A DNA stretch of 64,000 nucleotides from Candidatus Danuiimicrobium aquiferis (GCA_001804285.1 MHFR01000051.1:46926-110925), one strand, 5' to 3'. Counted from the stretch's first letter, positions 973 through 52,907 are shown. Numbers and translations: made by a program. The notes: generated by a model not told the origin, from the sequence alone.

Positions 973-2881
973 CAGAATCCCGCAAACGATATATTTCTAT
1001 AATCTGGCCGTTTTCCGTTCGATTGATCAGTTCCTTCCACAAAAACGGGCCGCCGGTCATTGCTTCATGGTCAAATGCCCAAGCAATCGTTTCGTCTTTG
1101 TAGGGCGAAAATCGCTTAACAAGTAAAGCGTTTTTAGTAAGCGCCGAACGAAATTCTTTATTAAGTTCAGGCTGCATTGCCGGCAAAATGACATAGTGGA
1201 CTCCCTCCCTGCGAAGTGTATCGATTGAATATGGAAGCTCCGGTGAAGCAAATAAAAAACTTTCGCCGACAGTTCGGCCGGTTAGAAAAAACAATTCATA
1301 AGCCGGCTTGTTTGACGTTTGCTGGTTGTGAATCAAAATCTCCAGCCTCTTTTTCTGGCTTTCGGAAAAAAATCGCCTTTCCTTTAAACGGCCCATTTTT
1401 TCAATTAATTGTTTTAAATTCATGCCGAGGCGGGGCGTGAAAAATGGAGCCCCTAACGCAATTTTCGAATCAGCGGGAATGTTTAGCTCAACCCACCGGG
1501 CAGCTTCCGTACGGACATCTTCCCTCGCAAACAGCCGATCGGAAAGAATTGATTTCACAAGTGACGGTGCGGCAATTATTAATGCAATCAATATCATTAC
1601 GAATTTACCATAGCGATTGTTGTCTTCGTAATAAGTTCCGCTGCTTCTCATTCCCTCGTTCAGCGAAGCAGCACCGCTCCGTATGTGTTGTGCGCCGGGA
1701 TCCGTGGATTCCCGCTTGCGCGGGAATGACACGATATTCGCGATTCGCTCTAATGCAAGTGTGGCAAGAATGAGTAAAAAAGGAATAATCGGCAGAACAT
1801 AACGGTCATAGGGTTGCCCCTTGAAGACGATCACGGCATAATAGGCTAAAACGAATGACAAAATGATTATTTGTTTTTTGTTTTTAGAAATCAAAGCAAG
1901 AATGCTTCCTGCCGCCGAAAAAACAAGGATTAAATAGCCGACTCCTTCATGTAGTGAATAAGTAAGATGGTGAAGCCACCCCATGAATCCGTGAACCGTT
2001 GATTCGCCGAGTGTTTCGGCAAGAAAAAAATGCCAGTCGAGGAAGACGTACGGATTCAGGACAAAAAACGTCACCGCGCTTATAATAAAGGCGATTAACA
2101 GATTAATTATATCTGTCATTCCCACCCGCTTCGTCCGCGAAGCGAGGCGAGCATGCTTCAGGCGGGAATCTAAAAAGCTCAAAAGGGGACAGGCACAAAT
2201 TTCGTGCCTGTCCCCTTTTTGGTTAACATGCGCAAACATAAACGGAACGAGCAGAAACACGCCGTTATATTTGACTGCCACGGCAAGCCCCAGCAGAAAA
2301 CCGAATTTAACATAATGGCGAAAGTTTCGTTCTTCAGAGATCCTCAAGATCAAATCCATTGCCGAAACCAAAATAAGAATCAACGGAATATCCGTATAAA
2401 TATAATGAGAATCGCGGACATGCAAAAAATTAACCGCAAGAAAAAAACTGCTTAACAGCGCGATTCCTTTTCCGAAATGTTTTTTACATAATCGGTATAA
2501 AAAATAAACAGTGAACGTTCCTATTACCGCTCCGAAAACAATCCGAGCAATTAAGTAAAATGAAGTCGGGTCAGTCACAAACAATTCAAGAAAGGCATCT
2601 TTCCCTGCAATCGCACCGCTAAGTCGAAGAAGAACAAAATAAATCCCGTAGCAAATGAACAACAAATAACTCACGAACGGCGGGACCTTGAAGAAATGCG
2701 GATTGAGGTCTCCGGAACCATATGCCAATGCATGGTTTACGACAATCGGCTCGTCGGCATGGTATTGATAAGGAAGGCCAAAATTGATACCCCAAAGGCG
2801 GAGAGCAAGAGCGAGGAGCAATATGAAGAAGATTGTGAGTTGAGCTCTATTTGAAGGGTACTGATTCTCGCTTGCGATCAT
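896..2881 (-). CDS. GT-C family membrane glycosyltransferase (ArnT/PMT-like, GT39/GT83-like), with two in-frame family-A repeat insertions
   Basis: N-terminus LRLWGINFGLPYQYHADEP is followed by many TM helices and a C-terminal soluble domain. Two stretches, ~1650-1731 and ~2115-2220, are copies of the dispersed GTCATTCCCGC...GCGGGAATGAC repeat. They are read in-frame as ...SFPRKRESTDPGAQHIRSGAASLNEGMRS... and ...ICACPLLSFLDSRLKHARLASRTKRVGMTD... . The call may really be a disrupted gene or two or three fused ORFs. Confidence 0.6.
   Translation of the reverse strand: MIASENQYPSNRAQLTIFFILLLALALRLWGINFGLPYQYHADEPIVVNHALAYGSGDLNPHFFKVPPFVSYLLFICYGIYFVLLRLSGAIAGKDAFLELFVTDPTSFYLIARIVFGAVIGTFTVYFLYRLCKKHFGKGIALLSSFFLAVNFLHVRDSHYIYTDIPLILILVSAMDLILRISEERNFRHYVKFGFLLGLAVAVKYNGVFLLVPFMFAHVNQKGDRHEICACPLLSFLDSRLKHARLASRTKRVGMTDIINLLIAFIISAVTFFVLNPYVFLDWHFFLAETLGESTVHGFMGWLHHLTYSLHEGVGYLILVFSAAGSILALISKNKKQIIILSFVLAYYAVIVFKGQPYDRYVLPIIPFLLILATLALERIANIVSFPRKRESTDPGAQHIRSGAASLNEGMRSSGTYYEDNNRYGKFVMILIALIIAAPSLVKSILSDRLFAREDVRTEAARWVELNIPADSKIALGAPFFTPRLGMNLKQLIEKMGRLKERRFFSESQKKRLEILIHNQQTSNKPAYELFFLTGRTVGESFLFASPELPYSIDTLRREGVHYVILPAMQPELNKEFRSALTKNALLVKRFSPYKDETIAWAFDHEAMTGGPFLWKELINRTENGQIIEIYRLRDSAILADRTSSTSGSAKIQSLPGTQIP
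1650..1731. repeat. Family-A repeat element (degenerate first hairpin + intact second hairpin) inside CDS 896..2881
   Basis: ...CGCCGGGATCCGTGGATTCCCGCTTGCGCGGGAATGACAC. It is read in-frame by the host ORF. Confidence 0.7.
2115..2220. repeat. Family-A-like element plus a strong terminator-like hairpin inside CDS 896..2881
   Basis: GTCATTCCCACCCGCTTCGTCCGCGAAGCGAGG...GGCGGGAATC at 2115-2170. A 12-bp perfect stem GGGGACAGGCAC-aaatttc-GTGCCTGTCCCC then follows, with TTTTT at 2185-2220. Confidence 0.7.
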
Positions 2882-2910
2882 ATTGTAATTTTATCATTCC
2901 CGTGTAGTTC

Positions 2911-2990
2911 TCCTCCCCCTTAATGGGGGAGGACAGAGGTGGGGGTGCGCCCCCCATCCTAACCTTCCCCCACACGGGGGGAAGGAATCT
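2911..2990. repeat. Family-C G/C-rich palindromic repeat (intergenic, between the GT2 and GT-C genes)
   Basis: TCCTCCCCCTTAATGGGGGAGGACAGAGGTGGGGG, followed by TTCCCCCACACGGGGGGAAGG. A near-identical copy is at 32183-32217: CTTCCTCCCCTTGATGGGGGAGGACAGAGGTGAGGG. Confidence 0.65.
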
Positions 2991-3007
2991 ATTACGGTTC
3001 GATTTCC

Positions 3008-3727
3008 TCACACATCATTGATATGCATTACTCGAATTTTAATCAAATCAAAAAACATTTTTATGGGATCCGCCACAACATTCACTTTGCTGGCCGTGGA
3101 ATTTCTCCAAATGACGGGGATCTCAGCGACCTTGAATCCTATCTTCTGGGCCAAGTAAATCACTTCAACGTCGAAGGAAAATCCATCAAGTTTTTGTAGG
3201 GAAAATATTTTTTTCGCGGCTTCCCGTTTAAAACATTTAAAACCGCACTGAGAATCTTTAATTCCTTTAAACGTCAATAGCCGCGCGATTTTATTGAAAA
3301 TTTTCCCCATTAATTCCCGGAAAAAGTTCTGACGAATTTCCACCTTAGAATTCGGAAGCGCCCGCGAGCCAATAGCGACGTCAAATCCATCCTCTAACTT
3401 TGCAATTAACCGCAACGCTTCCTCAATCGGTGTCGACAAATCGGCATCACTAAAAAGAATATAATCACCGGTGGCCTCAAGAACGCCCCGTCGAACGCTA
3501 TACCCCTTTCCCCGGTTCTTCTCGTTCCGCAAAAGCCTGTGCGTTTCATTTTCCCCGCCGCAACAATTTAGCACCACTTCGCATGTCCGGTCGCTGCTGC
3601 CGTCATCCACAACAATGATTTCATGTTCGATATTTATATTTCGAACAAAACTATGAATTGTTTCAAGAGACTTTCCGATCCGTTGTTCTTCGTTGTAACA
3701 AGGGATAACAATCGATAATTTTATCAT
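3008..3727 (-). CDS. Glycosyltransferase family 2 (dolichyl/polyprenyl-phosphate mannose synthase-like)
   Basis: MIKLSIVIPCYNEEQRI ... VVDDGSSDRT is a GT2 motif. Length is 239 aa. Confidence 0.8.
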   Translation of the reverse strand: MIKLSIVIPCYNEEQRIGKSLETIHSFVRNINIEHEIIVVDDGSSDRTCEVVLNCCGGENETHRLLRNEKNRGKGYSVRRGVLEATGDYILFSDADLSTPIEEALRLIAKLEDGFDVAIGSRALPNSKVEIRQNFFRELMGKIFNKIARLLTFKGIKDSQCGFKCFKREAAKKIFSLQKLDGFSFDVEVIYLAQKIGFKVAEIPVIWRNSTASKVNVVADPIKMFFDLIKIRVMHINDV

Positions 3728-3731
3728 TCTA

Positions 3732-4697
3732 TCATCTCAACATGTCGTTTAACGTTTGCCTCAGCGGAATTCGGGGCTCCCAACCACTCAATTGTTTCAT
3801 TTTGCCGGAAGCGAGTGCCATTCTTAGAATTTCATCTTTTGAAGTAAATGCCTCGTTTTTCCGCACTTTGATTTTTTCAATCTTCGAAAGTTCAATTATT
3901 TCCTTTAGGGCATGCCCGATCTTTACAGGCTTCCCGCGGCCGATATTGTAGGCTTCTCCCGGTTTCCCTTTTCCGCTGACCTCTGAAATAGCCTGAATTG
4001 CATCTCTCACGTCAATATAATCCCGGCTCGCTGAAAGGTTGCCGACGTCAATGATGGGCTTTTGTTTTCCAAGAGAGATATTTTTGATTTGATAGGCAAA
4101 ATTCGCAATTGAAAATGTCTTCGATTGATTTCGGCCGACGATATTGCATGGCCGGACGACGCAAATATTAAGTTTGAAATTCTTGGCATAAATTCTCGCA
4201 AAAGAGTCCAAAGCGGCCTTGCTAATGCTATATGGATCCTTGGGTTCCAACCGGTCGCTTTCAAATACTTTTTGTTTGTGATTGTGAGTCTCGCCATAAA
4301 TAGTCCCCGATGAAAAAATAATAATTTTTGACCGCAAAGCCAATTTTTTTGCGATCTCCAAAAGATTAATTCCTCCCACCAAATTAATATTGATGGTCTC
4401 GACCGGATTTGCCCAGGATAAACGAACGGAACTTTGCGCGGCCAGATAATAAATATAATCGGGCTTGATCCGTGCAACCAATCGTTCCATTCCCTGGCGG
4501 TTTCGGACGTCGAGTTGAAACATTCTAACGGAACCCGAAAGTGAAAAACCTTTTTTGTGATGGCGATGATAAGTTCCGAAAACGACTTGGTTCCGCGAAC
4601 ACAAGTCTTTTGCGATTTCGCTTCCCAAGAAACCGGTTGATCCGATTAGGAGGTGTTTTTTACATTTAGCCATTGGCGAGGACTTTAATATCTTCAT
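3732..4697 (-). CDS. NAD-dependent sugar epimerase/reductase (short-chain dehydrogenase fold), likely a GDP-4-keto-6-deoxymannose reductase/epimerase partner of Gmd
   Basis: GSTGFLGSEIAKDL is a Rossmann GxxGxxG motif. It lies immediately downstream of gmd and overlaps it by a few nt. The ORF-track start at 4700 is a TTG codon; the first ATG is at 4695-4697. Confidence 0.65.
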   Translation of the reverse strand: MKILKSSPMAKCKKHLLIGSTGFLGSEIAKDLCSRNQVVFGTYHRHHKKGFSLSGSVRMFQLDVRNRQGMERLVARIKPDYIYYLAAQSSVRLSWANPVETININLVGGINLLEIAKKLALRSKIIIFSSGTIYGETHNHKQKVFESDRLEPKDPYSISKAALDSFARIYAKNFKLNICVVRPCNIVGRNQSKTFSIANFAYQIKNISLGKQKPIIDVGNLSASRDYIDVRDAIQAISEVSGKGKPGEAYNIGRGKPVKIGHALKEIIELSKIEKIKVRKNEAFTSKDEILRMALASGKMKQLSGWEPRIPLRQTLNDMLR

Positions 4698-5631
4698 CAA
4701 CCATTAAATAAACCAGTTCTTCGAAACGCATCTTCGGCTTCCAGCCCAGCACGCGCCGCGCTTTCAAAGCGTTTCCGCAAAGAATATGTAATTCCGTTGG
4801 CCTGACAAGCTTTTGATCGGTTTCGACATATTTTTTCCAGTTAAGCCCGACGTGGTTAAATGCAACTCTCGCGAAATCCTCAACCGTGTGAGCTTCGCCC
4901 GTCGCAACCACATAATCGTCCGGTTTTGGCTGTTGAAGCATCTTCCACATTGCTTCAACATAATCGCCGGCAAATCCCCAATCCCGCTTCGCCTTTAGGT
5001 TACCGAGTGTCAGTTTTTTTTCCAGACCCAATTTGATTTTTGCAACACCCACTGAAATTCTTCGAGAAACAAATTCCTTCCCTCTCCGCGGCGATTCGTG
5101 ATTAAAAAGGATTCCGGAGCATGCAAACATATGGTAGCCTTCCCGGTAAATCACGGTCATCCAATGCCCGTAGGTTTTAGCAACCCCGTAAGGATTTCGC
5201 GGCCGAAGCGGTGTCGTTTCGCTTTGGGGGGTTTCCGCGACTAATCCGAACATTTCGCTCGAAGATGCCTGGTAGAATCGGATTTTTTTGTCGACAAGCC
5301 GAATGGCTTCGAGGATTCGCGCAACGCCTTGCGCTGTAAACTCACCCGTCAACGTTGGCTGTTCAAAGGATGTCGGCACAAACGATTGAGCGGCTAAATT
5401 ATAGACTTCGTGAGGTTTTACCGTTTGTATTAAACGGATGAGAGACATCTGATCAAGCAAATCACCTCGCACCAGTTCTATTCTGCCCATCAGATGGTTA
5501 ATTCGCTCGAAATTTTCCGTACTCGAACGGCGAACCATGCCATAAACTTCATAATCCTTGGTCGCTAATAAGTCGGCCAAATAAGATCCGTCCTGTCCCG
5601 TCACTCCGGTGATAATCGCTCGTTTTTTCAT
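4666..5631 (-). CDS. gmd: GDP-mannose 4,6-dehydratase
   Basis: [22 protein letters not shown] matches the canonical Gmd N-terminus. Length is 321 aa. The ATG at 5629-5631 overlaps the upstream gene's stop (ATGA). Confidence 0.9.
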
Positions 5632-6575
5632 TCTGCCCTCGCCTGAGTTTGTTTAAAATATTCAATGGCCGCCAGCAAGCCCTTTCGGACATCGACTTTC
5701 GGTGCCCATTTCAGAATTTCTTTTGCCCGCCGGATATCCGGATTTCTGACTTTGGGATCATCTTGTGGGAGGACACGATATTCAATTTTACTTTTTGAAC
5801 CCGTCAACTCAATAATCAATTTTGCAAGTTCACCGATTGTCATTTCATCATGTGGGTTGCCGATATTGACCGGCAAATTGAAATTTGAAAACAAAAGCCG
5901 CTGAAGCCCGTCCACCAAGTCGTCAACGTACGTAAAACTTCTTGTTTGTTTCCCGTCGCCGAAAATGGTGATGGGGTTTCCCTTCAGTGCCTGATCGATG
6001 AAATTAGGAATTGCCCGTCCGTCATTATGACGCATTCGCGGCCCGTAGGTATTGAAAATTCGGACAATTTTGGTATCGATACCATGTGTCCGGTGATAGG
6101 CAAGCGTAATGGCTTCCGCGAACCGTTTTGCTTCATCATAAACACCGCGCGGGCCGATCGGATTGACATTCCCCCAATAATCTTCATGCTGAGGGTGAAT
6201 AAGTGGGTCGCCATAAACCTCCGAAGTCGACGCGAGTAAAAAAACCGCTTTTTTAGCTTTCGCGAATCCAAGCGCGTTGTGGGTTCCGAGTGAACCTACC
6301 TTAAGTGTTTGAATCGGATATTTGATATAGTCGGCCGGGCTGGCCGGCGAAGCAAAATGGAGGACATAATCGACAGGCTCATCTACTTTGATTGTTTTTG
6401 AAACGTCATGATTTGTATATATAAAACGATTACAGGTTTGAAACGGCGCAATATTTTCCGGATTTCCAGTTAGCATGTTATCGAGGCAAATGACGCGCTC
6501 GCCTTTTTTTAAGAAATAGTCACACAGGTGTGAGCCGATAAAGCCTGCGCCGCCTGTAATTAAAAATGTTTTCAT
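5628..6575 (-). CDS. uxs: UDP-glucuronate decarboxylase (UDP-xylose synthase)
   Basis: [33 protein letters not shown] ... fits the UXS/ArnA-decarboxylase family pattern. Length is 315 aa. Confidence 0.8.
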
Positions 6576-6642
6576 CTCAAATCTCTCTCTGATATTGTCA
6601 TTACGTTCTAAAGCTCAATTTAGAAGCAGGTTCATAAAGTCT

Positions 6643-6718
6643 GTCATCCCCGCGAACGCGGGGATCCAGTAGAACCTAAAGACAACTTGGCTGGATTCCC
6701 GCTTTCGCGGGAATGACA
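6643..6718. repeat. Family-A palindromic repeat element (twin hairpins, ATTCCC-N8-GGGAAT core), intergenic uxs/rmlD
   Basis: GTCATCCCCGCGAACGCGGGGATCC ...spacer... GGATTCCCGCTTTCGCGGGAATGACA. The termini TGTCAT...ATGACA are inverted. Confidence 0.8.
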
Positions 6719-6755
6719 TAAGAACACAATTTTATTTGCATGCCCAGCATCTTTT

Positions 6756-7640: not shown

Positions 7641-7665
7641 TCGAAACCTTTTTCTTCGGGAAGGC

Positions 7666-9368: not shown

Positions 9369-9455
9369 ATTTCTTTTCTCCTTATTAAAGGGGCTGTTGT
9401 GTTAACTTAGTCATTAGAGAATGCTCAAGACCGGCAAAAGTTTTTTTCTAAAATT

Positions 9456-9533
9456 GTCATCCCCGCAAGCTTTAAGCGGGGATCCAGCAAATCTAAAATG
9501 AACCTGTGGATTCCCGCTTTCGTGGGAATGACA
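9456..9533. repeat. Family-A repeat element, intergenic rmlA/ugd
   Basis: GTCATCCCCGCAAGCTTTAAGCGGGGATCC ... GGATTCCCGCTTTCGTGGGAATGACA. Confidence 0.8.
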
Positions 9534-9578
9534 CCAAAGCTTTACCTAAATCTAATCATTAACAGCTGTCCCCTTTTG

Positions 9579-10868: not shown

Positions 10869-10878
10869 ATGCCTTCCT

Positions 10879-19960: not shown

Positions 19961-20470
19961 GTGGAACAAAAACAATTTGTTAAAACACTGAATGGTTTGG
20001 CCGGGAATCAAAAGTCCGGATTTACATTAGCCGAACTTTTGGTTGTCACTGTGATTGTTGGAATTTTGGGGATCCTTTCTATTCCGAAGTTTTATGCCCA
20101 AATCGAAAAGGCGAAAATATCTCAGGCTTTGGGTGTTTTATCGGCCATTCAAAAAAACGAGAAAATTTATCGCGCTGAACATGGTTATTACAAAGCATTA
20201 TATGAGATAGCAAGTACCGCAGATTGGGGAGGGATCGGAATGATGGATCCTTCTCCGTTTCTGCTTTCATCGCCCGATGGTGAGTTTAAGTATGAATTCC
20301 GCTTCTTAATGGACTCATATGGATATTTTGCGTTTGCAACACGCACAACGAAAAATGATTATAAAGGATATTCGGGTAAAAGAATTCGGGTTCGGCATTC
20401 TGACGGAAAAGCGGTCTGTAGCGCTGATCAATCTGACCACCCGTTGATTCCATTTTCAGCGTGTTGGTAG
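19961..20470 (+). CDS. Type IV pilin / pseudopilin paralog 1 (prepilin-type N-terminal cleavage/methylation domain)
   Basis: The ~20-aa leader ends ...NQKSG|FTLAELLVVTVIVGILGILSIPKF, a class III signal with Glu at +5. The C-terminal motif is CSADQSDHPLIPFSAC. Start is a GTG. Confidence 0.75.
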   Translation: MEQKQFVKTLNGLAGNQKSGFTLAELLVVTVIVGILGILSIPKFYAQIEKAKISQALGVLSAIQKNEKIYRAEHGYYKALYEIASTADWGGIGMMDPSPFLLSSPDGEFKYEFRFLMDSYGYFAFATRTTKNDYKGYSGKRIRVRHSDGKAVCSADQSDHPLIPFSACW

Positions 20471-20489
20471 ATTTGATAAAATGAGGTGA

Positions 20490-21002
20490 TTGACAGTGAA
20501 AAAAAATATATTGTACACCGTATTAAAAAACAAAAAAAAAGCGGTGTCAGGCTTTACACTTGCCGAACTTTTAATTGTTACTGTGATTGTGGGAATTTTA
20601 GGGATTATTTCTATGCCGAAGTTTTATGCCCAAAAGGAAACGGCGAAAATATCGGAAGCTTTAAGTATTTTATCAGCAATTCGTCAAAATGAGCGAGCTT
20701 ATTTTCTTGAAAAGGGCTCTTACAAAATAATAGTTCCTAACGCAAATGCGACAGATTGGGGGGAGATCGGAATGCTGGATCCTTCTCCGGATCCGCCCGC
20801 AGGTGAGTTTGACTATGAATTCAAATCCGGGGAGGAGGGGATATACTATGCGTTCGCAACACGCACGGCAAACAATAATTATATGGGATATGCTGGTAAA
20901 TTCGTTCGGGTTCGGGATAGCGATGGAAAAGCTGTCTGTTCTGCTGATACCGATCACCCTTTGATTTCCGATTCAGCGTGTTTGCAGCCTTGGCCGAGTT
21001 GA
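20490..21002 (+). CDS. Type IV pilin paralog 2
   Basis: ...KKKAVSG|FTLAELLIVTVIVGILGIISMPKFYAQKE, with C-terminal CSADTDHPLISDSAC. GAGGTGA RBS at ~20484; the true start is probably the GTG at ~20496. Confidence 0.75.
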   Translation: MTVKKNILYTVLKNKKKAVSGFTLAELLIVTVIVGILGIISMPKFYAQKETAKISEALSILSAIRQNERAYFLEKGSYKIIVPNANATDWGEIGMLDPSPDPPAGEFDYEFKSGEEGIYYAFATRTANNNYMGYAGKFVRVRDSDGKAVCSADTDHPLISDSACLQPWPS

Positions 21003-26500: not shown

Positions 26501-26677
26501 ACGGCAATCACATGGTATGCAGACGGATTGAATAGCTATCCGTACAAGACAAGTTACTATGTGGCACCGAATCGAAAGTTCAGATATAACGGCCAACGAA
26601 TGGTTATGGATCCGCCGCCCGGAACTCCGGGTACGTTTGCGATGATAAAAAAAGAATCGACCGAGAAAATCTATTAG
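23552..26677 (+). CDS. Large PilX-N-domain protein (1042 aa), putative pilus tip/minor-pilin adhesin with a Cys-rich C-terminal region
   Basis: AAAGGAGA RBS at ~23533-23540, then the ATG at 23552. The N-terminus KRNSRNANTFGFALLYAIFLAIAVEIGIIG is a PilX-like hydrophobic N-domain. The C-terminal third carries many Cys in short spacings (CYCTDTEWDNDAC, CPGENTICPDGTVCQG, CNSCETPPACTCYQGQAC). No PilY1 beta-propeller signature was recognised. Confidence 0.6.
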   Translation: MAKGQEVLINQNPAIMKARSKRNSRNANTFGFALLYAIFLAIAVEIGIIGSLYTMARHQREVQTDLNRVQMRMLNVSAVNEVLRNFKEYLGTHPNFPQHDVNSEVHDFDNPLSSWYNNASTGFKNRYSHVSGFFDLDLSNLKVRKVAESDGGGVWWREYEISSRVKSLWVPMQSEIKQKVRISNGKLFDFSIFSNVDLEIQGGPSFDLQGPIFSNGNIYLMNNPGSLLKLLRPSNIDSPESREPYIMRAAGNIYFGQNRAFAPNYLLTNAGYSQNVPSEYTDPLNNGLEINVAMDLSSYLPVFRFAPFIYHFNNGTSFKTASGGTPGNSPEVCVQNNQNCVWVDTGGTFTKLVPYHPPMKSITWFYPSYGSRYYTVVAGSQYGEPSSQGFISMSNAVDINNYPGIDPAWTPAAPTTYSPPVNPSWQNSLFNGSGGQSDVIAQGMPTRSIPIGDPVNPSGAHLLIEPIMDSDTTAIKESKFQQKAIDFGSGIGFNIHCLKSEILEPIYVAIYDCADAQYISPDFQALIDLNVAQYQNTASFFDFRIASPRTYISIDINKLLQFYPQAKMIYVRLLNGLMAPFSKPPRALRIINAKRLPKTGLTIATNGRIYIQGNYNTYLYENADGSSRMAADGTTLCQDIPAEDSDSGNAAPCYCTDTEWDNDACAPPPAAIFSDSFVALSSNWSDTYTSTMPPVEGRLASDTIINVGIATGIRRSQLLNSTYFSTSCVADMSNCEANGTWLSPDDSTTYYRGSDKSYYYVNKCSGKYLTAYATSKAKAGGDTTSTKLPPPPVTDLNDPAPECEAYNAKTATEKYNADSWRLPIFTDMIRQPGGEYSWKDHKSDSAPVPVRAFKGVYFRRLNSSRIFFDGTICVLSGPCPGENTICPDGTVCQGTRGMINNSRCTLVSAETGAYSCNSCETPPACTCYQGQACDPNAANFDPTVVYGGDYYYNLYTVEYSGGLENVVNLQENWAGKSLRFLGTTAITWYADGLNSYPYKTSYYVAPNRKFRYNGQRMVMDPPPGTPGTFAMIKKESTEKIY

Positions 26678-26715
26678 CCCGGATTTCTCATCACTAATGA
26701 GAGATTCCGCTTTGT
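26676..26715. repeat. Family-B fragment forming a hairpin just 3' of the 1042-aa pilus protein gene
   Basis: TTAGCCCGGATTTCTCATCACTAATGAGAGATTCCGCT matches 39603-39640. The internal palindrome is TCTCAT-cacta-ATGAGA. Confidence 0.6.
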
Positions 26716-32182: not shown

Positions 32183-32217
32183 TTCCTCCCCTTGATGGGG
32201 GAGGACAGAGGTGAGGG
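32183..32217. repeat. Family-C palindromic repeat, intergenic pncA/pncB
   Basis: CTTCCTCCCCTTGATGGGGGAGGACAGAGGTGAGGG. Confidence 0.65.
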
Positions 32218-36544: not shown

Positions 36545-36860
36545 TTCTAAAAATCCGAATTCCCGAATATCGCCCGCCACAAAGAGTTGGCGGGTCCGCC
36601 ATGTTGTGTGGTGGAACATCCGAAACAAGCCCTAAATTCGAATACCTCAATATTTTAAATAACTTTTGTGATATTTGAATTTTGGATTTCGGATTTGCTT
36701 CGGATTCCGTAATTTCGTGCTTCGAAATTAACCTAACAAACCCTATGCGAATTTGTGAAACAAGGTAATGATAACCTGCGCCCGCCCCGCATAAAACACG
36801 CGGGACAGGTTGTCCGCCACTAAAGCTTAGGCGGATCCACCAACGATTTGTGGTGGACAA
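36545..36860. repeat. Family-B related composite repeat region adjacent to tRNA-Arg
   Basis: It shares TCCGAAACAAGCCCTAAATTCGAAT (reverse complement of 39822-39847), ATATTTGAATTTTGGATTTCGGATTTG (reverse complement of ~39545-39590) and TTTCG.GCTTCGAAATTAACC with the right copy. Short CCGCCAC..N..TGGCGG hairpins also recur at 36569-36600, 36812-36840 and 37323-37350. Confidence 0.65.
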
Positions 36861-36964: not shown

Positions 36965-37907
36965 ACTAACGGTAATACTTTACTAATGCTTAGGTTATCC
37001 CGCCATAGAATTTTATTTGCAAGATAACCTTTATCGGCCGTCCTTTAGGGCGGGCGCTTTGAAATCTTTTATTTGTAACCCTCAACGGGTTCTTATATAT
37101 GTAAGTGATTGGGTTGTCATGACTTCTTATCAATGAATTAGATTTATTTAAATGTAAGTCATGGCTATCCAGCCGAGCTACAATCTGACATAACCACAAC
37201 CTCTAATTGCCGTTATTTTAACAATTTACAACGATTTATCAAACATTTCTTTCCCCTGAATTTCTTTCCTTGTAAAAAGCAAGGAACTTGCGGATCGTCT
37301 CATTTTGAAAAGCCTTATACTTGTCCGCCACTATTGCGTTGGCGGATCAGCCTTTGGCTGAAAGCGGGGATCCAAAAAATAATTCAAATTCAAATACTGG
37401 ATTTCTGCCTACTGCCTGCGGGAATCTTCCTCTTGCCTTTTCCAATACTAATTTTCGGACGGGTATCTGACATCTATCTTAAAACAACTTACATGATGGT
37501 TAAATGCCGCGTCGAGATCAAGAAATCGCCTTCGCATTTCAAAGCAATCAGATGTCTGTTGCGTTGGCGTGAAATAATTCAGGCATGCATTGTTATCATC
37601 GCCGGACTCAAGATTTTATAACGACTGTAGAAATCAAACTGCGCCAATTTCTAAATACGATTTGGGGCCACGATTTGGGGAAATAAGTATCTTTTTGAAG
37701 GTTTCAGAGGTACTATTGTCTTGCAAAGTAACGCGAGAAGGCGAGGTTTTGCCGCGCGATTGGCGAGCAGACCATTCTGCAAACGGTTTTCATCTTTGTC
37801 TTGAGCCTCTTGCTTGGGTCATTCTGATTTTGTTTAAACTGCGAGTTTTATTCCTGATTTATGAGAATTCTTGCAATGATAATATCGAGATTAAGAAAGG
37901 ACACGGC

Positions 37908-39519: not shown

Positions 39520-39870
39520 GATGCTTCTTAATTCGCAAAATGCCGAAAAATCCGAATTCGCGAATACCAAAATCCGAAATCTCAAATTCAAATATCACAA
39601 AAACTGTTTTAGCCCGGATTTCTCATCGCTAATGAGAAATTCCGCTCGTAAGAGCTGTGGCGCAAAGATGGTTTGCATCTTTGCGACGCAGGGCTTATCT
39701 TTTGCACCCTGATTTAACAAGGGCGCAAAACTTTGTGCGCAACTGATTGCGCCCAAAGCGACTTTCTTGTCGATTCACAAAATCGATGAGAAAGTCGGGT
39801 TAGAAATTGAGACATTCGAATTTAGGGCTTGTTTCGGATTTCACAATTTCGCGTTTCGAAATTAACCTTG
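39520..39870. repeat. Family-B repeat, right copy, immediately 5' of the ROK kinase gene. It carries a ~55-bp internal insertion relative to the left copy
   Basis: ...AAAATCCGAAATCTCAAATTCAAATATCAC ... TTTTAGCCCGGATTTCTCATCGCTAATGAGAAATTCCGCTCGTAAG ... CCCTGATTTAACAAGGGCGCAAAACTTTGTGCGCAAC ... CAAAATCGATGAGAAAGTCGGGTTAG ... ATTCGAATTTAGGGCTTGTTTCGGATTTCAC. Confidence 0.75.
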
Positions 39871-42956: not shown

Positions 42957-43350
42957 CGCTATCTACCTTTCTTTGGTAAGTTAAATAGTCTCTTGTTCCT
43001 TCCATCAAATAAACAGGATGAATGATGGGTGGTTGGGGATATAGAAAAGAAACAACCTCATAAGCTCCGACAGAAAATCTCCCGACAGTATTAAAAATAC
43101 CGCGAATGGGATCAAGCAGAATCATTTTGTCAATACGCGTTTCGACAAGCCCTGTTTCAACCGCTCGCGGCAATTCTAACGGTGAGTAAACAATGTTATA
43201 CAAACCACGCCCGAGCTTTTTTGCCGCTCGAAACACATAAAGATCCTTGCACCAACCGGTTGAACTAAACAAAAATAAAAAAAGCAAAAGCAATGAAATG
43301 AATTTATTTCCCAACCTTGCCATGAGACCGTTCCTTTCTATTATATTCAA
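42946..43350 (-). CDS. Hypothetical exported protein
   Basis: The N-terminus is hydrophobic (FISLLLLFLFLFSSTGW). No family was recognised. It is embedded in the secretion cluster. Confidence 0.4.
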   Translation of the reverse strand: MNIIERNGLMARLGNKFISLLLLFLFLFSSTGWCKDLYVFRAAKKLGRGLYNIVYSPLELPRAVETGLVETRIDKMILLDPIRGIFNTVGRFSVGAYEVVSFLYPQPPIIHPVYLMEGTRDYLTYQRKVDSDGP

Positions 43351-43364
43351 CCTGACCGATTTTT

Positions 43365-43492
43365 GTCATTCCCGCATGTTTTAGGCGGGAATCCATTGTA
43401 CCAATAGATGCTAATTGACTTATGGATCCCCGATTCCCTGGAAATACAGGGCCGGCCCTCGTCTTACCGAGGGAAAGCATTCGGGAATGACA
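43365..43492. repeat. Family-A repeat element (long variant), between the hypothetical gene and gspF
   Basis: GTCATTCCCGCATGTTTTAGGCGGGAATCC ... GGATCCCCGATTCCCTGG...CCCTCGTCTTACCGAGGG...CATTCGGGAATGACA. Confidence 0.75.
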
Positions 43493-43501
43493 CAACTCAA
43501 G

Positions 43502-44725: not shown

Positions 44726-44740
44726 CGCAATTTAGTTGAT

Positions 44741-44875
44741 GTCATGCCCGCACGCTTAAAGCGGGCATCCACAGCTTCTGGATTCCCGCTTTCGCGGGAA
44801 TGACAAAGAAACATATGCCCTTTTACAGATAATTGCTTCAAAGTATTAAACAAATACAGTTATTTAGCCTTCTCT
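44741..44875. repeat. Family-A repeat element + conserved ~55-bp extension, between gspF and the secretin
   Basis: GTCATGCCCGCACGCTTAAAGCGGGCATCCACAGCTTCTGGATTCCCGCTTTCGCGGGAATGACAAAG, then ...CCCTTTTACAGATAATTGCTTCAAAGTATTAAACAAATAC. It is near-identical to 50770..50905. Confidence 0.8.
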
Positions 44876-46620: not shown

Positions 46621-46653
46621 ATACTTTTATCTCGCCCGAGTTTTAAAAATGAT

Positions 46654-47502: not shown

Positions 47503-47512
47503 TGTGTCGTCC

Positions 47513-48094
47513 TCAAATATTTTTTAGTTCAAATGAAATCTCGAAAAAAATAACACTTTCCTTGTTGACCGTATTCGATTCGGTCCGGACAAAAGTAGCG
47601 TTTGAAAAATACTCACTCTCATTTAAATTGGCGATGAATTTGCTCACATCGGCATTGCTATATGTTCCGCCGAACACTTGACACTTTGAAGTTTCCAATA
47701 TCAATTTATCCGCCCACGCCCGGTCCGGCAGTGATTGCTTGAATTCTGAAAGAATTTGTGACCATTGGGTTCGCGTCACATCTAATCGGGCTAATTGTTC
47801 GCGTTTTTTTCTTAAAACCACAATTCTGTCTTCAATATTTTTTAGCTGGTCGGCTGAACTTTGTTTCGTACTTTCGGCCTCTTCGATTTGGGCACTGATG
47901 TGACTTAGTTTTTCATCTACGGCCTGCTTCTTTTGCTTCCCATAGTTTAAACTAATGGTCGAGTAAATCGCGATCAAAGCCATAATCACAACAAGGACAA
48001 CAGCCCCTATCACCGCCTGCATCAACAGCCCTGACTCAACAAGAGCTTTTTTTCCGGATGCGAACTCTGGTGGTATCAGATTAATTCTTTTCAT
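47513..48094 (-). CDS. pilN: PilN-like (GspL-periplasmic-like) bitopic protein
   Basis: MKRINLIPPEFASGKK ... plus a TM segment and a coiled coil. The INLLP-type N-terminus is the PilN signature. Confidence 0.7.
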   Translation of the reverse strand: MKRINLIPPEFASGKKALVESGLLMQAVIGAVVLVVIMALIAIYSTISLNYGKQKKQAVDEKLSHISAQIEEAESTKQSSADQLKNIEDRIVVLRKKREQLARLDVTRTQWSQILSEFKQSLPDRAWADKLILETSKCQVFGGTYSNADVSKFIANLNESEYFSNATFVRTESNTVNKESVIFFEISFELKNI

Positions 48095-48136
48095 GATTTC
48101 TGCTTTTTCCTTTTTGCTTAAAACTTATAACCCTCT

Positions 48137-49420
48137 TCATGGCATACCCAGTCCAAATGGTAATATTGCCCATTCGTCTATTTTCAGGGCTAATCCTAAT
48201 GCGACCGGTGAAAGTGTTTTCTTTTTATCAAAGCCATTCAGGGTTTTAAATTTCTCATCAAGGTGGTACGGTTTCCATAAATCGATCGGGTTGATATCTA
48301 CATTCAAACTTCCACAAACATATTCCCTGAAACCGGTCATGTCTGAACTGCCGCCTAATAGATAGGCCCGATGAACTTTCCCACCTTCGGATCCAACTTC
48401 TTTTGAGAATGAAAACTGAAGTGAGCGGTTCACTTCTGCTAATAATTTATTTATTTCGTCCAAGAGTACCCCGCTTACAGCGAAAGCTTCATCGCTTAAA
48501 TTCGATTCCTTAATTCCCGCTTTAGAGATAGCCGACAAACCATAAGTCTTTTTTAACTCTTCTGCTTTTGAAAAATTGCAGTTTAATTTTTCGGAAAGTG
48601 CTACCGAAAACCGGTTTCCGGCTATCGGAATCAATCGCCCAAATAGGATGCGTTGACCTGCAACAATTAATAAGCTGGTGAAACGCGCTCCAACATCAAG
48701 AATGACGACACGTTCATTTTTTTCCCAACGCTCTGTCCTGAGCAGCGCTTGCCAGCTTGCCAGCGGATTGGTTTCGATAGAAAGGACGCGAAAGCCCGCG
48801 CTTTGAACGACTTCAAATTGACGATAGATTAATTCTCGGGGTATTGCTACCAAAAAAAGTTTTTGAATGCTGCTCGCATTATCGGAATTCTGTTCAGGAA
48901 TATAATCAAAGAAATTGGTTTTAGGATCAATCAAGTGTTGATCGCTCATCTCTTTTTTGATCGATTCCCGCACTTCCTCATTTGTCCCTTTAGGCACTGC
49001 CATCTCCCCCAGAAAGACAGATTGATCATAAACACTAATTCCCACGCGTGTCTTTGGTTTTATCCTCGAAGAAATTTTAACTAAACAATTAACCACTTCT
49101 TTCATGGGATCCTCAGGCTGGCTGCCGTCCGATAATTTTTGAAGGGGTTCAACCTGATAATCTTTAATGCAGATCCCTTTACTTTTTTTGCTGAGAAGGA
49201 TAAATTTAATAGAATCCCCACCGACATCAATCCCCGCAAATTCATTGTGATAAACCGCATTCTCAAACCCTGCCCGTATGGCTTGAAAAAATCCGGGCCC
49301 GCTTTTTAAAGGGGTGCTTTCAATAGATTTTGAGCCTTCCTGTTTTTTCAGCTTTCCCGAAGTGTCAGGATCAAATATCCGCGAAATCAGCTTCTTTGAA
49401 TCAATTCGATTTTGTGACAA
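48137..49420 (-). CDS. pilM: PilM-like actin-fold ATPase (GspL-cytoplasmic-like)
   Basis: FAGIDVGGDSIKFILL ... is an actin-like ATPase fold. There is a ~60-aa N-terminal extension. Confidence 0.75.
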   Translation of the reverse strand: MSQNRIDSKKLISRIFDPDTSGKLKKQEGSKSIESTPLKSGPGFFQAIRAGFENAVYHNEFAGIDVGGDSIKFILLSKKSKGICIKDYQVEPLQKLSDGSQPEDPMKEVVNCLVKISSRIKPKTRVGISVYDQSVFLGEMAVPKGTNEEVRESIKKEMSDQHLIDPKTNFFDYIPEQNSDNASSIQKLFLVAIPRELIYRQFEVVQSAGFRVLSIETNPLASWQALLRTERWEKNERVVILDVGARFTSLLIVAGQRILFGRLIPIAGNRFSVALSEKLNCNFSKAEELKKTYGLSAISKAGIKESNLSDEAFAVSGVLLDEINKLLAEVNRSLQFSFSKEVGSEGGKVHRAYLLGGSSDMTGFREYVCGSLNVDINPIDLWKPYHLDEKFKTLNGFDKKKTLSPVALGLALKIDEWAILPFGLGMP

Positions 49421-50321
49421 GGGCCAAAACCTCCTCGGCTAACTGCTGATACTCAATCGCGCCCAACGAAGTTGGCGCATACGTGATCACCGATTGCTGG
49501 ACCATCGGTGACTCAATTAATTTCACATTGTTGTGAATGACCGTCTTGAACATTTGACTTCCGAAATAATCCCTCAGCGCATGTAACACTTCTTCTGCGA
49601 TTTTGATCCGCTTATCATAAAGGGTCGCAAGAATGCCCAATGTCTCGAGTCCGGGATTAAATTGCTGTTTAACGGATTCGATGGTCCGGAAAAGCTCCTT
49701 CATGCCTTCCAACGCATAATAATGAGTCTGCACGGGAATTAAGACTTTTGATGCATAGCACAATGCATTTAATGTCAATAAATTCAATGTCGGAGGACAA
49801 TCTAATAAAATGAAATCGTAATGTTGCTGAACATTCTGCAATTTAGACCGAAGGGCTTGCTCTCCTGCTTGTATATCGGCCAGCTCAAGTTGCGCGCTTG
49901 CCAAACGGCTCGCAGAAGGCAAAATATGAAGCCCCGGAATCTGACATGGCCGCATCACATCCCCAAAAACCACATTGGGATTGACAAGCAGATCGTAAAC
50001 CGATCGCTGCAACTTATCAACAGATACGCCAAGCCCTAATGTCGCATGTGCTTGCGGATCTAAATCCACCACCAAAACCTTTCCACCCTTTATGGCCAAA
50101 GCAGCGCTAAGATTGACAACCGTTGTGGTTTTCCCGCAACCGCCTTTTTGGTTCATCACAGTTATCGTCACGGGCCGGCTTCCCTCCGGAAGTCCAAAAG
50201 AACTTTGAAGATCTCGCTTTAACTCCCCTTCACGGAGCCACCCAAAAATACTTCTGAATTTGAACCCTGCTTTTTTTGGGGGTTCCTCTGTAGAAATCGT
50301 ACTCTCCAGTAATTCACTCAT
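49401..50321 (-). CDS. ParA/MinD-family P-loop ATPase
   Basis: The deviant Walker A is NQKGGCGKTTTVVNLSAALAIKGGKVLVVDLDPQA. The internal ATG overlaps the merR stop (ATGA). Confidence 0.75.
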   Translation of the reverse strand: MSELLESTISTEEPPKKAGFKFRSIFGWLREGELKRDLQSSFGLPEGSRPVTITVMNQKGGCGKTTTVVNLSAALAIKGGKVLVVDLDPQAHATLGLGVSVDKLQRSVYDLLVNPNVVFGDVMRPCQIPGLHILPSASRLASAQLELADIQAGEQALRSKLQNVQQHYDFILLDCPPTLNLLTLNALCYASKVLIPVQTHYYALEGMKELFRTIESVKQQFNPGLETLGILATLYDKRIKIAEEVLHALRDYFGSQMFKTVIHNNVKLIESPMVQQSVITYAPTSLGAIEYQQLAEEVLALVTKSN

Positions 50322-50605
50322 ATGGAATCCTCCTTGGAACCCTTGACTTTCAATGCAGCCGCGCACAGTGTATAGCCTTCGTTCAAAAGCTGCTTAATCC
50401 GCAGCAATACGTTAATATCTGATTGCGAAAACCTTCTATATTCATACGAACCGAATTGTTCATAAATGGGCTTAACGATTCCAAGCTGTTCCCAATAATA
50501 AAGTTGCCGGCTTGAAACTCCAACGAGCTTTGCTGTCGAAGAAATACTGTAGTACAGCGCACCTGAATGGACTATGTCTAACATCTGTTGCAAATTTTGC
50601 GTCAT
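50318..50605 (-). CDS. MerR-family HTH transcriptional regulator, minimal (95 aa, no effector domain)
   Basis: YSISSTAKLVGVSSRQLYYWEQLGIVKP is a MerR-type HTH. Confidence 0.7.
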   Translation of the reverse strand: MTQNLQQMLDIVHSGALYYSISSTAKLVGVSSRQLYYWEQLGIVKPIYEQFGSYEYRRFSQSDINVLLRIKQLLNEGYTLCAAALKVKGSKEDSI

Positions 50606-50769
50606 AATAGTTAACCTTTTGTTTTACAAGTATGTCTATGGTTTGACATCCTTGTTATATGCGTGAATCGACCGAAGGCAGAGAAACTTTATTGATTTTT
50701 ATTTGAAATGGGGTGTTTACCCGGAGGCTGCCATTGGTAATTGTTTAGCGTTCTGAAGTGGCAAACACG

Positions 50770-50905
50770 CCAGGTTCGTGTCATGCCCGCATGCTTAAGG
50801 CGGGCATCCACAGTTTCTGGATTCCCGCTTTCGCGGGAATGACAAAAAATCAGAGGCCCTTTTACAGATAATCGCTTCAAAACGCTAAACAAATACTGCC
50901 ATTGA
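50770..50905. repeat. Family-A repeat element + conserved extension, between merR and gspE
   Basis: GTCATGCCCGCATGCTTAAGGCGGGCATCCACAGTTTCTGGATTCCCGCTTTCGCGGGAATGACAAAA ... CCCTTTTACAGATAATCGCTTCAAAACGCTAAACAAATAC. Confidence 0.8.
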
Positions 50906-50920
50906 AGTGATTACTAAAAT

Positions 50921-50967
50921 CCCCTCACCCCTACCCTCTCCCCGTGGGAGAGGGTAGGGGTGAGGGC
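50921..50967 (-). terminator. Perfect 21-bp-arm GC-rich palindrome directly 3' of the gspE stop (candidate intrinsic terminator / family-C repeat)
   Basis: CCCTCACCCCTACCCTCTCCC cgtg GGGAGAGGGTAGGGGTGAGGG. On the minus strand it is followed by ATTTTAGTAATC. Confidence 0.4.
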
Positions 50968-50974
50968 AACCGGA

Positions 50975-52681
50975 CTACGAGTCCTGTGTCACTCTCAGGA
51001 CCTCGTCGATGGTGGAAACGCCCTGCTGGGCTTTGAGGAGGCCTTCTTCTTTTAAGGTTTTCATGCCAAGCGCAATCGCTTTTCTTTTAATGACTTCCGC
51101 GGATTCTTTTTTAACAATAGACGCGCGAATATCATCCGTTGGAACCATGAACTCAAATATGCCCGTTCTTCCCTGATAACCCGTTCCTTTGCATCGGTCA
51201 CAACCGACCTTTTCATAGAACTCGGATTTAACATTCTTTGCTCCGATGTGACCGCTCACTTCCATTAATAATGCTTTTTCAGGGAGATACGGTTTTCTGC
51301 AATGAGTACACAGCTTACGAACAAGCCGCTGCGCGATGACACAGCTTAGAGATGACGAAATCAAAAATGGCTCGACCCCCATATCAAGCAACCTGGTAAT
51401 GGCTGCCGGCGCATCGTTGGTGTGTAAGGTGCTTAGCACCAGATGCCCCGTCAATGCGGCTTGAATGGCAATCGTTGCCGTTTCCAAATCACGGATTTCA
51501 CCGATCATAATCACATCGGGATCCTGTCGCATAATCGAACGCAATCCCTTGGCGAAGGTCAACCCGCTTTTCAGATCAATTTGTGATTGCCGGACTCTTT
51601 CCAACCGGGACTCAACCGGATCTTCTAAGGTAATGATATGCTTCTCGACGGAATTAATTCGGTTTAAACAAGCGTATAACGTGCTTGTTTTTCCGCTACC
51701 GGTCGGACCCGTGACTAAAATAATTCCGTGCGGATATTGAAGGATTTTTTCGAATTGAATCAATGCCTGTTGCTGCATCCCGAGATCCTCAAGCGAAATT
51801 ACAGACTCTGACCGGTCCAAGACACGGATGACCACATTTTCACCATAAATGGTCGGGAAGGTGGAGATACGAAGATTCACGTCTCTATCTTTCATCTGAT
51901 ATTGAATCCGTCCGTCTTGAGGCAGCCGTTTTTCGGCAATATCCATATTGGCCATAATTTTGATGCGGGAAATAATTGACGATTCCATCGATTTCGGAGG
52001 CAGGGGCGAATAATCGTACAAAACCCCGTCAATCCGGTAACGCACGTACAATGCCTTTTCCGCAGGCTCCAAATGAATATCGCTTGCATGATTTTCGAGT
52101 GCTTTTTCAATCAGTAAATTGACAATATTAACAGCGGGCGCATTCTGGGTTGATTCGCCTATGATTTTATCTTTCGATTCTCCGGAAACTGAACCGCCAT
52201 CTCCTCCGATTCCACGGATGGCTTTCCCAAGATGATCTTCCGTCCCAAAGAGTTGATTGATTTTTCGGAGAATGGCTTCTTCATCGGAAAAAACCGGAGA
52301 AATTTCGCACTTGGCATATTGTCCGAGGCGGTCGAGCAGAACGACATCAAGAGGATCAATCATGGCCATAGTCAAAACGTTCTTTTCTTTTTTGATCGGT
52401 AAAACTTTGAAGTAACGGATTAATTTTTCAGGAATCAATTTAATCGTTTCGGGATCAAGAGAAGGAATTTGATCCAAATCAAGGAATGAAATGCGGTAAA
52501 ATTCACTGATCAGCTTAAGAACTTCTACTCGGGAACGACCTTCGAGACACGGCAAAACATCAATAAAACGTTTTCCTGCTTTACCGCGTTCTTCAAAAAG
52601 CTTGTCTTTTTCGGGTTGCGTTAACATATGCCCCGAGGAAAGTTTTTCTTTCAGATACGTTTCTAATTCCTTTTCAATCAC
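50975..52681 (-). CDS. gspE: Type II secretion / type IV pilus assembly ATPase (GspE/PilB family)
   Basis: N-terminal MshEN-like domain, Walker A GPTGSGKTSTLYA, the Asp/His boxes, and the tetracysteine motif CTHCRKP...CDRCKGTGY. Confidence 0.9.
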   Translation of the reverse strand: MIEKELETYLKEKLSSGHMLTQPEKDKLFEERGKAGKRFIDVLPCLEGRSRVEVLKLISEFYRISFLDLDQIPSLDPETIKLIPEKLIRYFKVLPIKKEKNVLTMAMIDPLDVVLLDRLGQYAKCEISPVFSDEEAILRKINQLFGTEDHLGKAIRGIGGDGGSVSGESKDKIIGESTQNAPAVNIVNLLIEKALENHASDIHLEPAEKALYVRYRIDGVLYDYSPLPPKSMESSIISRIKIMANMDIAEKRLPQDGRIQYQMKDRDVNLRISTFPTIYGENVVIRVLDRSESVISLEDLGMQQQALIQFEKILQYPHGIILVTGPTGSGKTSTLYACLNRINSVEKHIITLEDPVESRLERVRQSQIDLKSGLTFAKGLRSIMRQDPDVIMIGEIRDLETATIAIQAALTGHLVLSTLHTNDAPAAITRLLDMGVEPFLISSSLSCVIAQRLVRKLCTHCRKPYLPEKALLMEVSGHIGAKNVKSEFYEKVGCDRCKGTGYQGRTGIFEFMVPTDDIRASIVKKESAEVIKRKAIALGMKTLKEEGLLKAQQGVSTIDEVLRVTQDS

Positions 52682-52835
52682 GAATCAACCCGTTGGTTAT
52701 GATGATATGATGAGCTTTGTGTTTCAGAATTACAATTTTGACAATTTAACCTGAACCCCTCATTAAATCAAGAAAAAAGTGCCCAATCAAAGCCATGACA
52801 CCCTTGATTTAAATTTTGTGTTTTGCAAAATTTAT

Positions 52836-52907
52836 GTCATTCCCGCAAGCTTTAAGCGGGAATCCAGAAAAAATATGGATCCCCGATAGAAACATTCGGG
52901 GATGACA
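52836..52907. repeat. Family-A repeat element, between gspE and the giant gene
   Basis: GTCATTCCCGCAAGCTTTAAGCGGGAATCC ... GGATCCCCGATAGAAACATTCGGGGATGACA. Confidence 0.8.

Follow-up and report, generated by a model that had tools for sequence, protein, structure and literature searches.

Dispersed twin-hairpin repeats in a Candidatus Omnitrophota genome probably belong to the NTS/SRM family recognized by Ssn single-strand nucleases

The 28-nt Neisseria Transformation Sequence (NTS; CGTCATTCCCGCGMAVGCGGGAATCYRG) contains the dRS3 repeat and was described together with a degenerate Ssn-related motif (SRM) and the SsnA nuclease (Chenal et al., 2025, Nat Commun; PMC11893778). Both NTS repeats and the ssnA gene are widespread, well beyond Neisseria (PMC11893778). 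Here, we report on twin-hairpin repeats that are dispersed through a 64,000-nucleotide stretch of DNA from Candidatus Danuiimicrobium aquiferis (MHFR01000051.1:46926-110925; hereafter, the window), which lies within a 137.5-kb metagenomic contig of an uncultured Candidatus Omnitrophota bacterium (ENA ERZ27254836 k141_1714022). Collectively, our observations suggest it is probable that these repeats belong to the NTS/SRM family recognized by Ssn nucleases, that dRS3 is the core of this family, and that the twins are gene-less miniatures of modules that carry an ssn gene. Both the repeat family and its partner enzyme have been described before. What appears to be new relative to the text of PMC11893778 is the Omnitrophota host, the predominance of converging gene-less doublets with the ends of ssn modules, and insertions in frame within coding sequences (CDS).

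SsnA of Neisseria is a single-domain GIY-YIG protein of 94 aa (~95 aa; cd10448) that binds the hairpin only as single-stranded DNA (ssDNA), cuts a few nucleotides upstream (5') of it, and acts on the strand where the repeat arm reads forward (PMC11893778). Binding depends most on the C that follows the palindrome, whereas cutting depends most on the three bases that precede it (PMC11893778). Genes for SsnA are often flanked by NTS/SRM repeats, and the insertion sequence (IS)-like nature of the resulting module has already been raised (PMC11893778). [quoted passage not shown]

An earlier reading of the window, made from its sequence alone (the sequence-only reading), listed nine copies of the repeat, all of which were found on reading the listed positions, although the copy given as 50770 starts at 50779. 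The copies comprise six full twin-hairpin elements (twins), one single hairpin, one degenerate twin, and one remnant, as follows.

1650-1731: degenerate twin, in frame within the CDS of a GT39 glycosyltransferase; left arm decayed, right arm intact (1704-1731, forward on the minus strand, TGTCATTCCCGCGCAAGCGGGAATCCAC; matches SRM, and NTS within three mismatches)
2114-2170, plus strand: one NTS-like hairpin whose loop is expanded (TGTCATTCCCACCCGC...GGCGGGAATCT), also in frame in the GT39 CDS; ssDNA fold of -14 kcal/mol (z -3.0)
6642-6718: full twin; left arm TGTCATCCCCGCGAACGCGGGGATCCAG (plus strand) and right arm TGTCATTCCCGCGAAAGCGGGAATCCAG (forward on the minus strand) with a 21-nt spacer; both arms match SRM and the right arm is one mismatch from NTS; folds as a single long hairpin of -27 to -28 kcal/mol (z -6.4 and -8.1)
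9455-9533: full twin; long-loop left arm GCAAGCTTTAAGC and short-loop right arm with one stem mismatch; fold z -2.7
37340-37425 (approximate): decayed twin remnant; left arm reduced to its 3' half (GCGGGGATCCA), right arm degenerate (CTGGATTTCTGCC...GCGGGAATC), with motif matches at 37364/37366 and 37418; fits neither NTS nor SRM in the motif search
43364-43492: full twin; left arm matches SRM, right arm has a nested-hairpin loop of ~45 nt; fold of -32 kcal/mol (z -6.0)
44740-44805 (44740-44864 with tail): full twin with a ~60-nt tail; right arm one mismatch from NTS; fold z -6.1
50779-50844 (50779-50903 with tail): full twin with the same ~60-nt tail
52835-52907: full twin, both arms long-looped; left arm matches SRM; fold z -4.7

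Each arm is an 8-bp hairpin with (T/C)GTCAT on its 5' side and CC(A)G on its 3' side, and the full element reads TGTCAT-N-CCCGC-loop-GCGGG-N-ATCC(AG), spacer, (CT)GGAT-N-CCCG-loop-CGGG-N-ATGACA. The inverted TGTCAT/ATGACA termini that the sequence-only reading proposed are found on every full copy. Spacers are 12-35 nt in length, and only isolated doublets, with no long repeat arrays, were identified in the window. Both arm families are recovered by mechanical repeat finding. Five arms fit the dRS3 core ATTCCC-N8-GGGAAT exactly, and the looser pattern ATTCCC-N6-10-GGGAAT occurs five times in the window when compared to 0.04 expected occurrences (0 of 100 shuffles reached five). Other arms carry covarying ATCCCC/GGGGAT or ATGCCC/GGGCAT variants, such that the variable stem base pairs as T:A, C:G, or G:C. 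Twins fold as ssDNA at -15.5 to -32 kcal/mol, mostly as a single long hairpin, with z scores of -6 to -8 in four of the six full twins and weaker scores for those at 9455 and 52835. Repeat finding also showed 87% identity over 130 nt between the 44740 and 50779 copies. When the two are aligned, the likeness begins at about the TGTCAT end, and the additional tail previously reported for them extends ~60 nt past ATGACA.

A full-text literature search with the arm sequence led to the NTS/SRM system, in which the SRM is defined as HGTCWYN(0-2)YYVSBRHN(0-5)WNVSBRGN(0-2)RNCYNB and an NTS is allowed at most one mismatch (PMC11893778). The resemblance to dRS3 that the sequence-only reading noted holds, since the NTS contains dRS3 and three window arms (6691-6718, 44778-44805, and 50817-50844, all forward on the minus strand) are identical to TGTCATTCCCGCGAAAGCGGGAATCCAG, which differs from the NTS only at base 1. 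Ten arms in the window match the SRM; in 30 first-order Markov simulations, matches averaged 0.13 and never exceeded 1.

A twin-specific pattern, run against GTDB with each species represented by one genome, revealed matches in at least 119 stretches from many phyla. The matches listed include Alpha-, Beta-, Gamma-, and Deltaproteobacteria, Gemmatimonadota, Planctomycetota, Chloroflexota, Verrucomicrobiia, Nitrospirota-type lineages, Spirochaetota, Leptospirales, Calditrichaceae, Aminicenantes, a metagenome-assembled genome (MAG) of Prevotellaceae, Omnitrophota, and many Patescibacteria; isolate genomes among them are those of Altererythrobacter sp. C41, Ramlibacter sp. Leaf400, and Alphaproteobacteria bacterium SO-S41. 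Across these lineages, both arms and the TGTCAT/ATGACA ends are conserved, while spacers are divergent. Among 100 distinct 28-nt units from 113 sources, positions G2, T3, and C4 (upstream) and C25 (just 3' of the palindrome), the bases identified as critical in PMC11893778, are invariant, and pairing in the 8-bp stem reaches 98.8%. Some of the conserved bases were set by the search pattern itself, but neither the 5' half of the left arm nor the covarying positions were. Stem pair 7:22 takes all four Watson-Crick types in these units, and 57 double-change cells were counted in the stem versus 12.2 in shuffles (0 of 500 shuffles reached 57).

Two groups of matches differ in their arrangement. 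In a MAG of Azospirillaceae (L057:2588-3042), an 83-bp twin is present in four head-to-tail copies with a 124-bp period, which indicates that twins can form tandem arrays in some genomes and recalls the NIME arrays of Neisseria. In the MAG of Candidatus Hatepunaea meridiana (L013, L024, L039, and L069), the inverted repeat continues past TGTCAT/ATGACA (e.g., cccattt...aaatggg), and one contig of 2,950 bp has twins at both ends, suggesting that this longer variant of the element probably breaks the assembly.

We then consider the gene that accompanies these repeats. A hidden Markov model (HMM) built from 120 Ssn-like proteins was used on the twin-bearing loci and identified putative ssn genes directly beside twins or arms at three of them.

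L014:7260-7550: ssn gene in Omnitrophota MAG nzgw330 (HMM E 1e-54)
L021:833-1198: ssn gene in a Gammaproteobacteria MAG (HMM E 1e-43)
L096:2-106: partial ssn gene in a Gammaproteobacteria MAG (HMM E 4e-15)

At the Omnitrophota locus (L014), near-identical twins flank ssn, and arm variants of the window are present, including the long GCATGCTTTAAGC-type loop. At L021, ssn lies between a forward and a reverse arm with their GTCAT heads outward, which is the geometry of a twin with the gene as spacer. The Ssn-like protein family has more than 7,900 matches at E <1e-10, with lengths of ~100 aa and the Pfam domain PF01541. In the L014 protein, the GIY Tyr, the YIG Tyr, and the catalytic Glu are 11 and 47 residues apart, which is the spacing of Y6/Y17/E64 in SsnA of N. 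meningitidis; NCBIfam and PDB searches with this protein returned weak GIY-YIG-type matches only (1zg2 at E 0.0085). Two other candidate Ssn proteins (P0083 and P0094) were considered as the source organism's own and were rejected because they belong to unrelated samples.

The geometry of arms was examined at 80 metagenomic ssn loci, 57 of which have at least 300 nt on both sides of the gene. Upstream of ssn, the arm is forward at 17 of these 57 loci, with 3 compound cases, and reverse at only 3; downstream, it is reverse at 25, with 2 compound cases, and forward at only 3. A converging arm pair encloses ssn at 20 of the 80 loci, and the resulting modules are 350-453 bp in length. Their ends are TGTCAT...ATGACA on both sides in 14 of the 20, with CGTCAT and/or ATGACG at one or both ends in the other 6, and the arm type with a long loop that is present in the window recurs in one module (L138). 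The dispersed unit in the source lineage, and in many others, is a converging doublet with the ends of the ssn module. The arm stems of some metagenomic ssn modules (L167, L174, L193, L213, L156, and L160) are altered on both sides, e.g., ATTCTGGC...GCCAGAAT or ATACCGCGG...CCGCGGTAT; such two-sided changes suggest that the specificities of arm and nuclease may evolve together.

The sequence-only reading had called the element REP- or MITE-like (MITE, miniature inverted-repeat transposable element), and in architecture it is: the twin is an inverted doublet that forms one long hairpin, and its ends are the same as those of the gene-carrying module. Neither the window nor the open reading frames (ORFs) that flank twins elsewhere yielded the partner that had been envisaged, which was an IS200/IS605 TnpA-REP association or a tyrosine transposase. 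If the twins were REPINs (REP doublets), spread and maintained by RAYT (a REP-associated tyrosine transposase of the Y1/HUH type) or IS200/IS605 TnpA, then the inverted doublet with its single long hairpin and the dispersed, mostly intergenic copies would be expected, and both are observed. We nevertheless regard this explanation as exceedingly improbable, given that no Y1_Tnp or other transposase is annotated in the window, that the recurrent neighbor of twins is a small GIY-YIG gene, and that the foot of the hairpins is GTCAT. The REPs that are linked to RAYT carry a GTAG/CTAC foot. Neither a transposase nor an integrase was identified in the Pfam annotation of the whole window, and no Pfam family was seen more than twice among 136 ORFs that flank twins elsewhere. 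To look for a common transposase near the copies, the 3,406 ORFs of the 119 loci were clustered all against all, and only housekeeping families emerged (TctC, ABC transporters, histidine kinases, and glycosyltransferases). The reading favored here corrects the expected partner from a transposase to a single-strand-DNA nuclease and ties a previously unexplained repeat of a candidate phylum to a characterized enzyme family.

Each twin comprises two facing arms with their GTCAT heads outward. Because SsnA cuts 5' of a forward-reading arm, a twin would be nicked outside each end on opposite strands; the nicks of an Ssn nuclease are thus predicted, from published SsnA cutting, to fall just outside the TGTCAT/ATGACA ends, one per strand. 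The ssn genes lie in the same frame, arm(+) - ssn - arm(-), in modules of 0.35-0.45 kb. In our reading, twins would be gene-less miniatures of this module that depend on an ssn gene located at another genomic site and acting in trans; the relationship would parallel that of MITE and IS or of REPIN and RAYT. We infer that the source genome encodes an ssn gene, that its product binds and cuts the window arms, and that its activity spreads the elements. The proposal lacks a copying mechanism, since a hydrolytic GIY-YIG nuclease cannot itself join DNA strands. By analogy with what has been reported in Neisseria, effects on recombination or on the uptake of foreign ssDNA are possible.

More tentative, and in our judgment somewhat improbable, is the suggestion that the arm-ssn-arm module is a minimal mobile element of a new mechanistic type, moved by a hydrolytic GIY-YIG single-strand nuclease rather than by a transposase, with the doublets as a MITE-like non-autonomous form able to land in frame inside genes, in more than a dozen phyla including Omnitrophota and Patescibacteria. 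If this were true, actual mobility would gain its first structural support from the CDS insertions, the doublet form, and the ends that twins and modules have in common, and the doublets would provide a concrete substrate for how a non-joining nuclease could spread DNA.

Several observations weigh against an assignment of the window repeats to the NTS/SRM-Ssn system. Over ~84 kb of the source contig, the window included, neither an ssn gene nor any other GIY-YIG gene was identified (regular expression and HMM searches of six-frame translations of the window, L001, and L124; annotation). Several window arms have loops of 9-13 nt or ~45 nt, as compared to the 4-nt loop of the canonical NTS, and altered palindrome sequence can abolish the activity of N. 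meningitidis SsnA (PMC11893778). The other contigs that carry window proteins are all 99.9-100% identical and offer no empty sites, and no target-site duplications are visible around twins or around the 20 ssn modules. With no target-site duplication and no difference in presence or absence, recent mobility in the source lineage is not shown.

The family is not a local duplication: twins occur in at least 119 stretches in many phyla, a tenth copy is located outside the window, 2 kb past its start (L124:7988-8095), bringing the count to 10 copies in ~74 kb of one contig, and assemblies break inside twins. Specifically, the independent Logan contigs L003 and L004 end at 50820/50821 (in the 50779 twin) and at 52864 (in the 52835 twin). 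Assemblers typically break contigs at multi-copy repeats. A practical consequence is that NTS/SRM repeats break short-read assemblies of Omnitrophota genomes and that their translations yield spurious peptide motifs. The big-loop variant of the 43364-43492 twin is also seen at L124:7988-8056. An apparent rule that the short-loop arm is always on the sense strand was withdrawn: the big-loop copy at L124:7988-8095 has the opposite orientation to that at 43364, and only a small number of other cases, some of them duplicates, are left.

Evidence of arrival by insertion comes from the gene that encodes the GT39 glycosyltransferase (896-2881, minus strand), which gene callers predict as a single protein of 661 aa. 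Homologs are ~560 aa and are named as Candidatus Omnitrophota proteins in their sources; 12 of these (45-49% identical, 561-581 aa) align over nearly the full length of the protein, which extends 26 aa beyond the aligned region at its C-terminus. A 38-aa insertion in the window protein (PRKRESTDPGAQHIRSGAASLNEGMRSSGTYYEDNNRY) corresponds to the degenerate twin at 1650-1731, part of it being encoded by the right arm at 1704-1731, and is missing from all 12 homologs. A second region is ~30 aa longer than in homologs and corresponds to the hairpin at 2114-2170 and a neighboring, unrelated hairpin at 2182-2220. Based on the translation, both insertions appear to be in hydrophilic stretches between hydrophobic segments that are probably membrane-spanning. 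For the 1650-1731 and 2114-2170 copies, and among the data considered here, this comparison of homologous sequences is the sole evidence that points to arrival by insertion. Such copies can apparently be tolerated as in-frame insertions in the loops of a membrane protein. The unrelated hairpin at 2182-2220, of which this is the sole copy within the window, has a perfect 12-bp stem (GGGGACAGGCAC-AAATTTC-GTGCCTGTCCCC) with A and T runs on either side and resembles a bidirectional terminator; it is in frame within the GT39 CDS, where it encodes a 17-aa insertion (VNQKGDRHEICACPLLS) that is missing from the 12 homologs.

Pfam annotation of the window reveals sugar-nucleotide and glycosyltransferase genes, GGDEF proteins, sigma-54, two pseudopilin clusters, and a pilus cluster of the PilM/N/O-secretin-PilC-MshE type. 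The sequence-only reading described the copies as concentrated in intergenic gaps of the secretion cluster, which is accurate for four copies in the pilus cluster, whereas two others lie in spacers of the sugar-nucleotide operon; intergenic placement, in turn, does not extend to the two copies at 1650-1731 and 2114-2170, which are within a real GT39 CDS, and one remnant is near a tRNA gene. The 6642-6718 twin lies between an epimerase gene and rmlD, and the 9455-9533 twin between rmlA and a UDP-glucose dehydrogenase gene. The remnant at ~37340-37425 is between tRNA-Arg and a DUF2934 gene. The twin at 43364-43492 takes up most of the 151-bp spacer from a pseudopilin gene to a PilC-like T2SSF gene, and the 44740 twin and its tail occupy nearly the whole spacer between a secretin gene and a T2SSF gene. 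The 50779 twin is between an MshE/PilB-like ATPase gene and a MerR-family gene, and the 52835-52907 twin is between the gene for a giant protein and an ATPase gene.

This setting raises the alternative that twins act mainly at the level of RNA or DNA structure in operons, for instance as mRNA-stabilizing hairpins, attenuators, or promoter donors, with the nuclease link reflecting only the history of their arrival. All full copies are in short spacers between same-strand genes of apparent operons, which suggests that they are probably transcribed, and their folds are strong. In addition, the ATGACA end of the twin at 43369 is followed 18 nt downstream by TATAAT, forming a promoter-like site (43369-43340, minus strand; 11 of 12 positions of the sigma-70 match) that reads into the downstream pseudopilin gene. 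Nonetheless, promoter-like sites are no more common than in shuffles, no twin scored as an intrinsic terminator, and Rfam returned no match on twins. Moreover, the unpaired flanking GTC and C are conserved across phyla, as would be expected of a site recognized by a protein more than of a hairpin in general. We consider it unlikely that a role at the RNA level is the main explanation, although such a role is possible alongside recognition by Ssn, with which it is compatible. In the search for a known RNA family, two tRNAs were the only Rfam matches above gathering thresholds, and the twins had no match even when E values up to 1 were allowed. A weaker promoter-like site (52840-52813, minus strand; 9 of 12) reads into the ATPase gene, with the ATGACA end as its -35-like hexamer.

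The twins might instead be attachment sites of recombinases or phages, for which dRS3 offers a precedent: filamentous prophages of Neisseria integrate into dRS3 via a phage-encoded transposase/recombinase (PMC1797815, PMC11893778). This reading is very unlikely to account for the repeats. Genes of recombinases, IS, or prophages are absent from the annotated window, and none of these families is recurrent among the ORFs examined next to twins elsewhere. Viral contigs rarely contain the twin pattern, with 7 stretches in IMG/VR. At best, attachment would be a secondary use of existing sites and would leave their origin unexplained.

Other features of the window were observed in passing. The gene for the giant protein (52972-64000 and beyond) encodes 9,218 aa in the full contig, with no Pfam match on record, and has a GC content of ~50% versus ~43% for the rest of the window. 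Tandem pseudopilin-like paralogs at 19961-21002 contain 251-nt and 106-nt segments that recur every ~520-530 nt at 76% identity. A second type of palindrome, a hairpin with a 20-bp stem (CCCTCACCCCTACCCTCTCCC...) and a T-rich tail, is located at 50922-50966, 3' of the ATPase gene, and is the best terminator-like site of the region; a related-looking 30-mer (CCCCTTAATGGGGGAGGACAGAGGTGGGGG) is present in two copies (2916-2945 and 32188-32217) that are 93% identical. Two further dispersed repeats each have two copies, one of 46 nt at 26666-26711 and 39601-39646 (89% identity), with the short hairpin TCTCATC-ACTA-ATGAGA inside, and one of 54 nt at 36681-36734 and 39815-39868 (80% identity).

Four described systems invite comparison. 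The palindromic elements of Rickettsia insert in frame in protein-coding genes. They resemble the twins in being palindromic repeats that are tolerated as extra loops in proteins. A MAG of a Rickettsia endosymbiont (L120) is among the twin matches, and Rickettsia is among the genomes with more than 300 SRMs (PMC11893778). The REPIN/RAYT system shares the inverted doublet of short palindromes that folds into a single long hairpin and the combination of many non-autonomous copies with a single-copy gene flanked by repeats. It differs in that the gene associated with twins encodes a hydrolytic GIY-YIG nuclease rather than an HUH/Y1 transposase and in that the foot is GTCAT rather than GTAG.

The dRS3/NIME repeats of Neisseria (Bentley et al., 2007; PMC1797815) share more with the twins, in that a dRS3-spacer-dRS3 unit is what a twin formally amounts to, the extra common segment of the 44740 and 50779 copies gives a mosaic-like unit, and copies are located among type IV pilus genes in both organisms. 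However, the window lacks long arrays, its spacers are 12-35 nt as compared to RS families of typically 50-150 bp, and phylum and GC content (43%) differ. The closest likeness is to the NTS/SRM-Ssn system, with which the window repeats share a near-identical 28-nt sequence, the same hairpin with 5' GTC and 3' C, and an NTS-ssn-NTS gene architecture in genomes related to the source. They differ from it in their Omnitrophota host, which is unmentioned in the text of PMC11893778, in being almost all converging gene-less doublets, many with long or nested loops, and in the two copies that lie in frame in a CDS.

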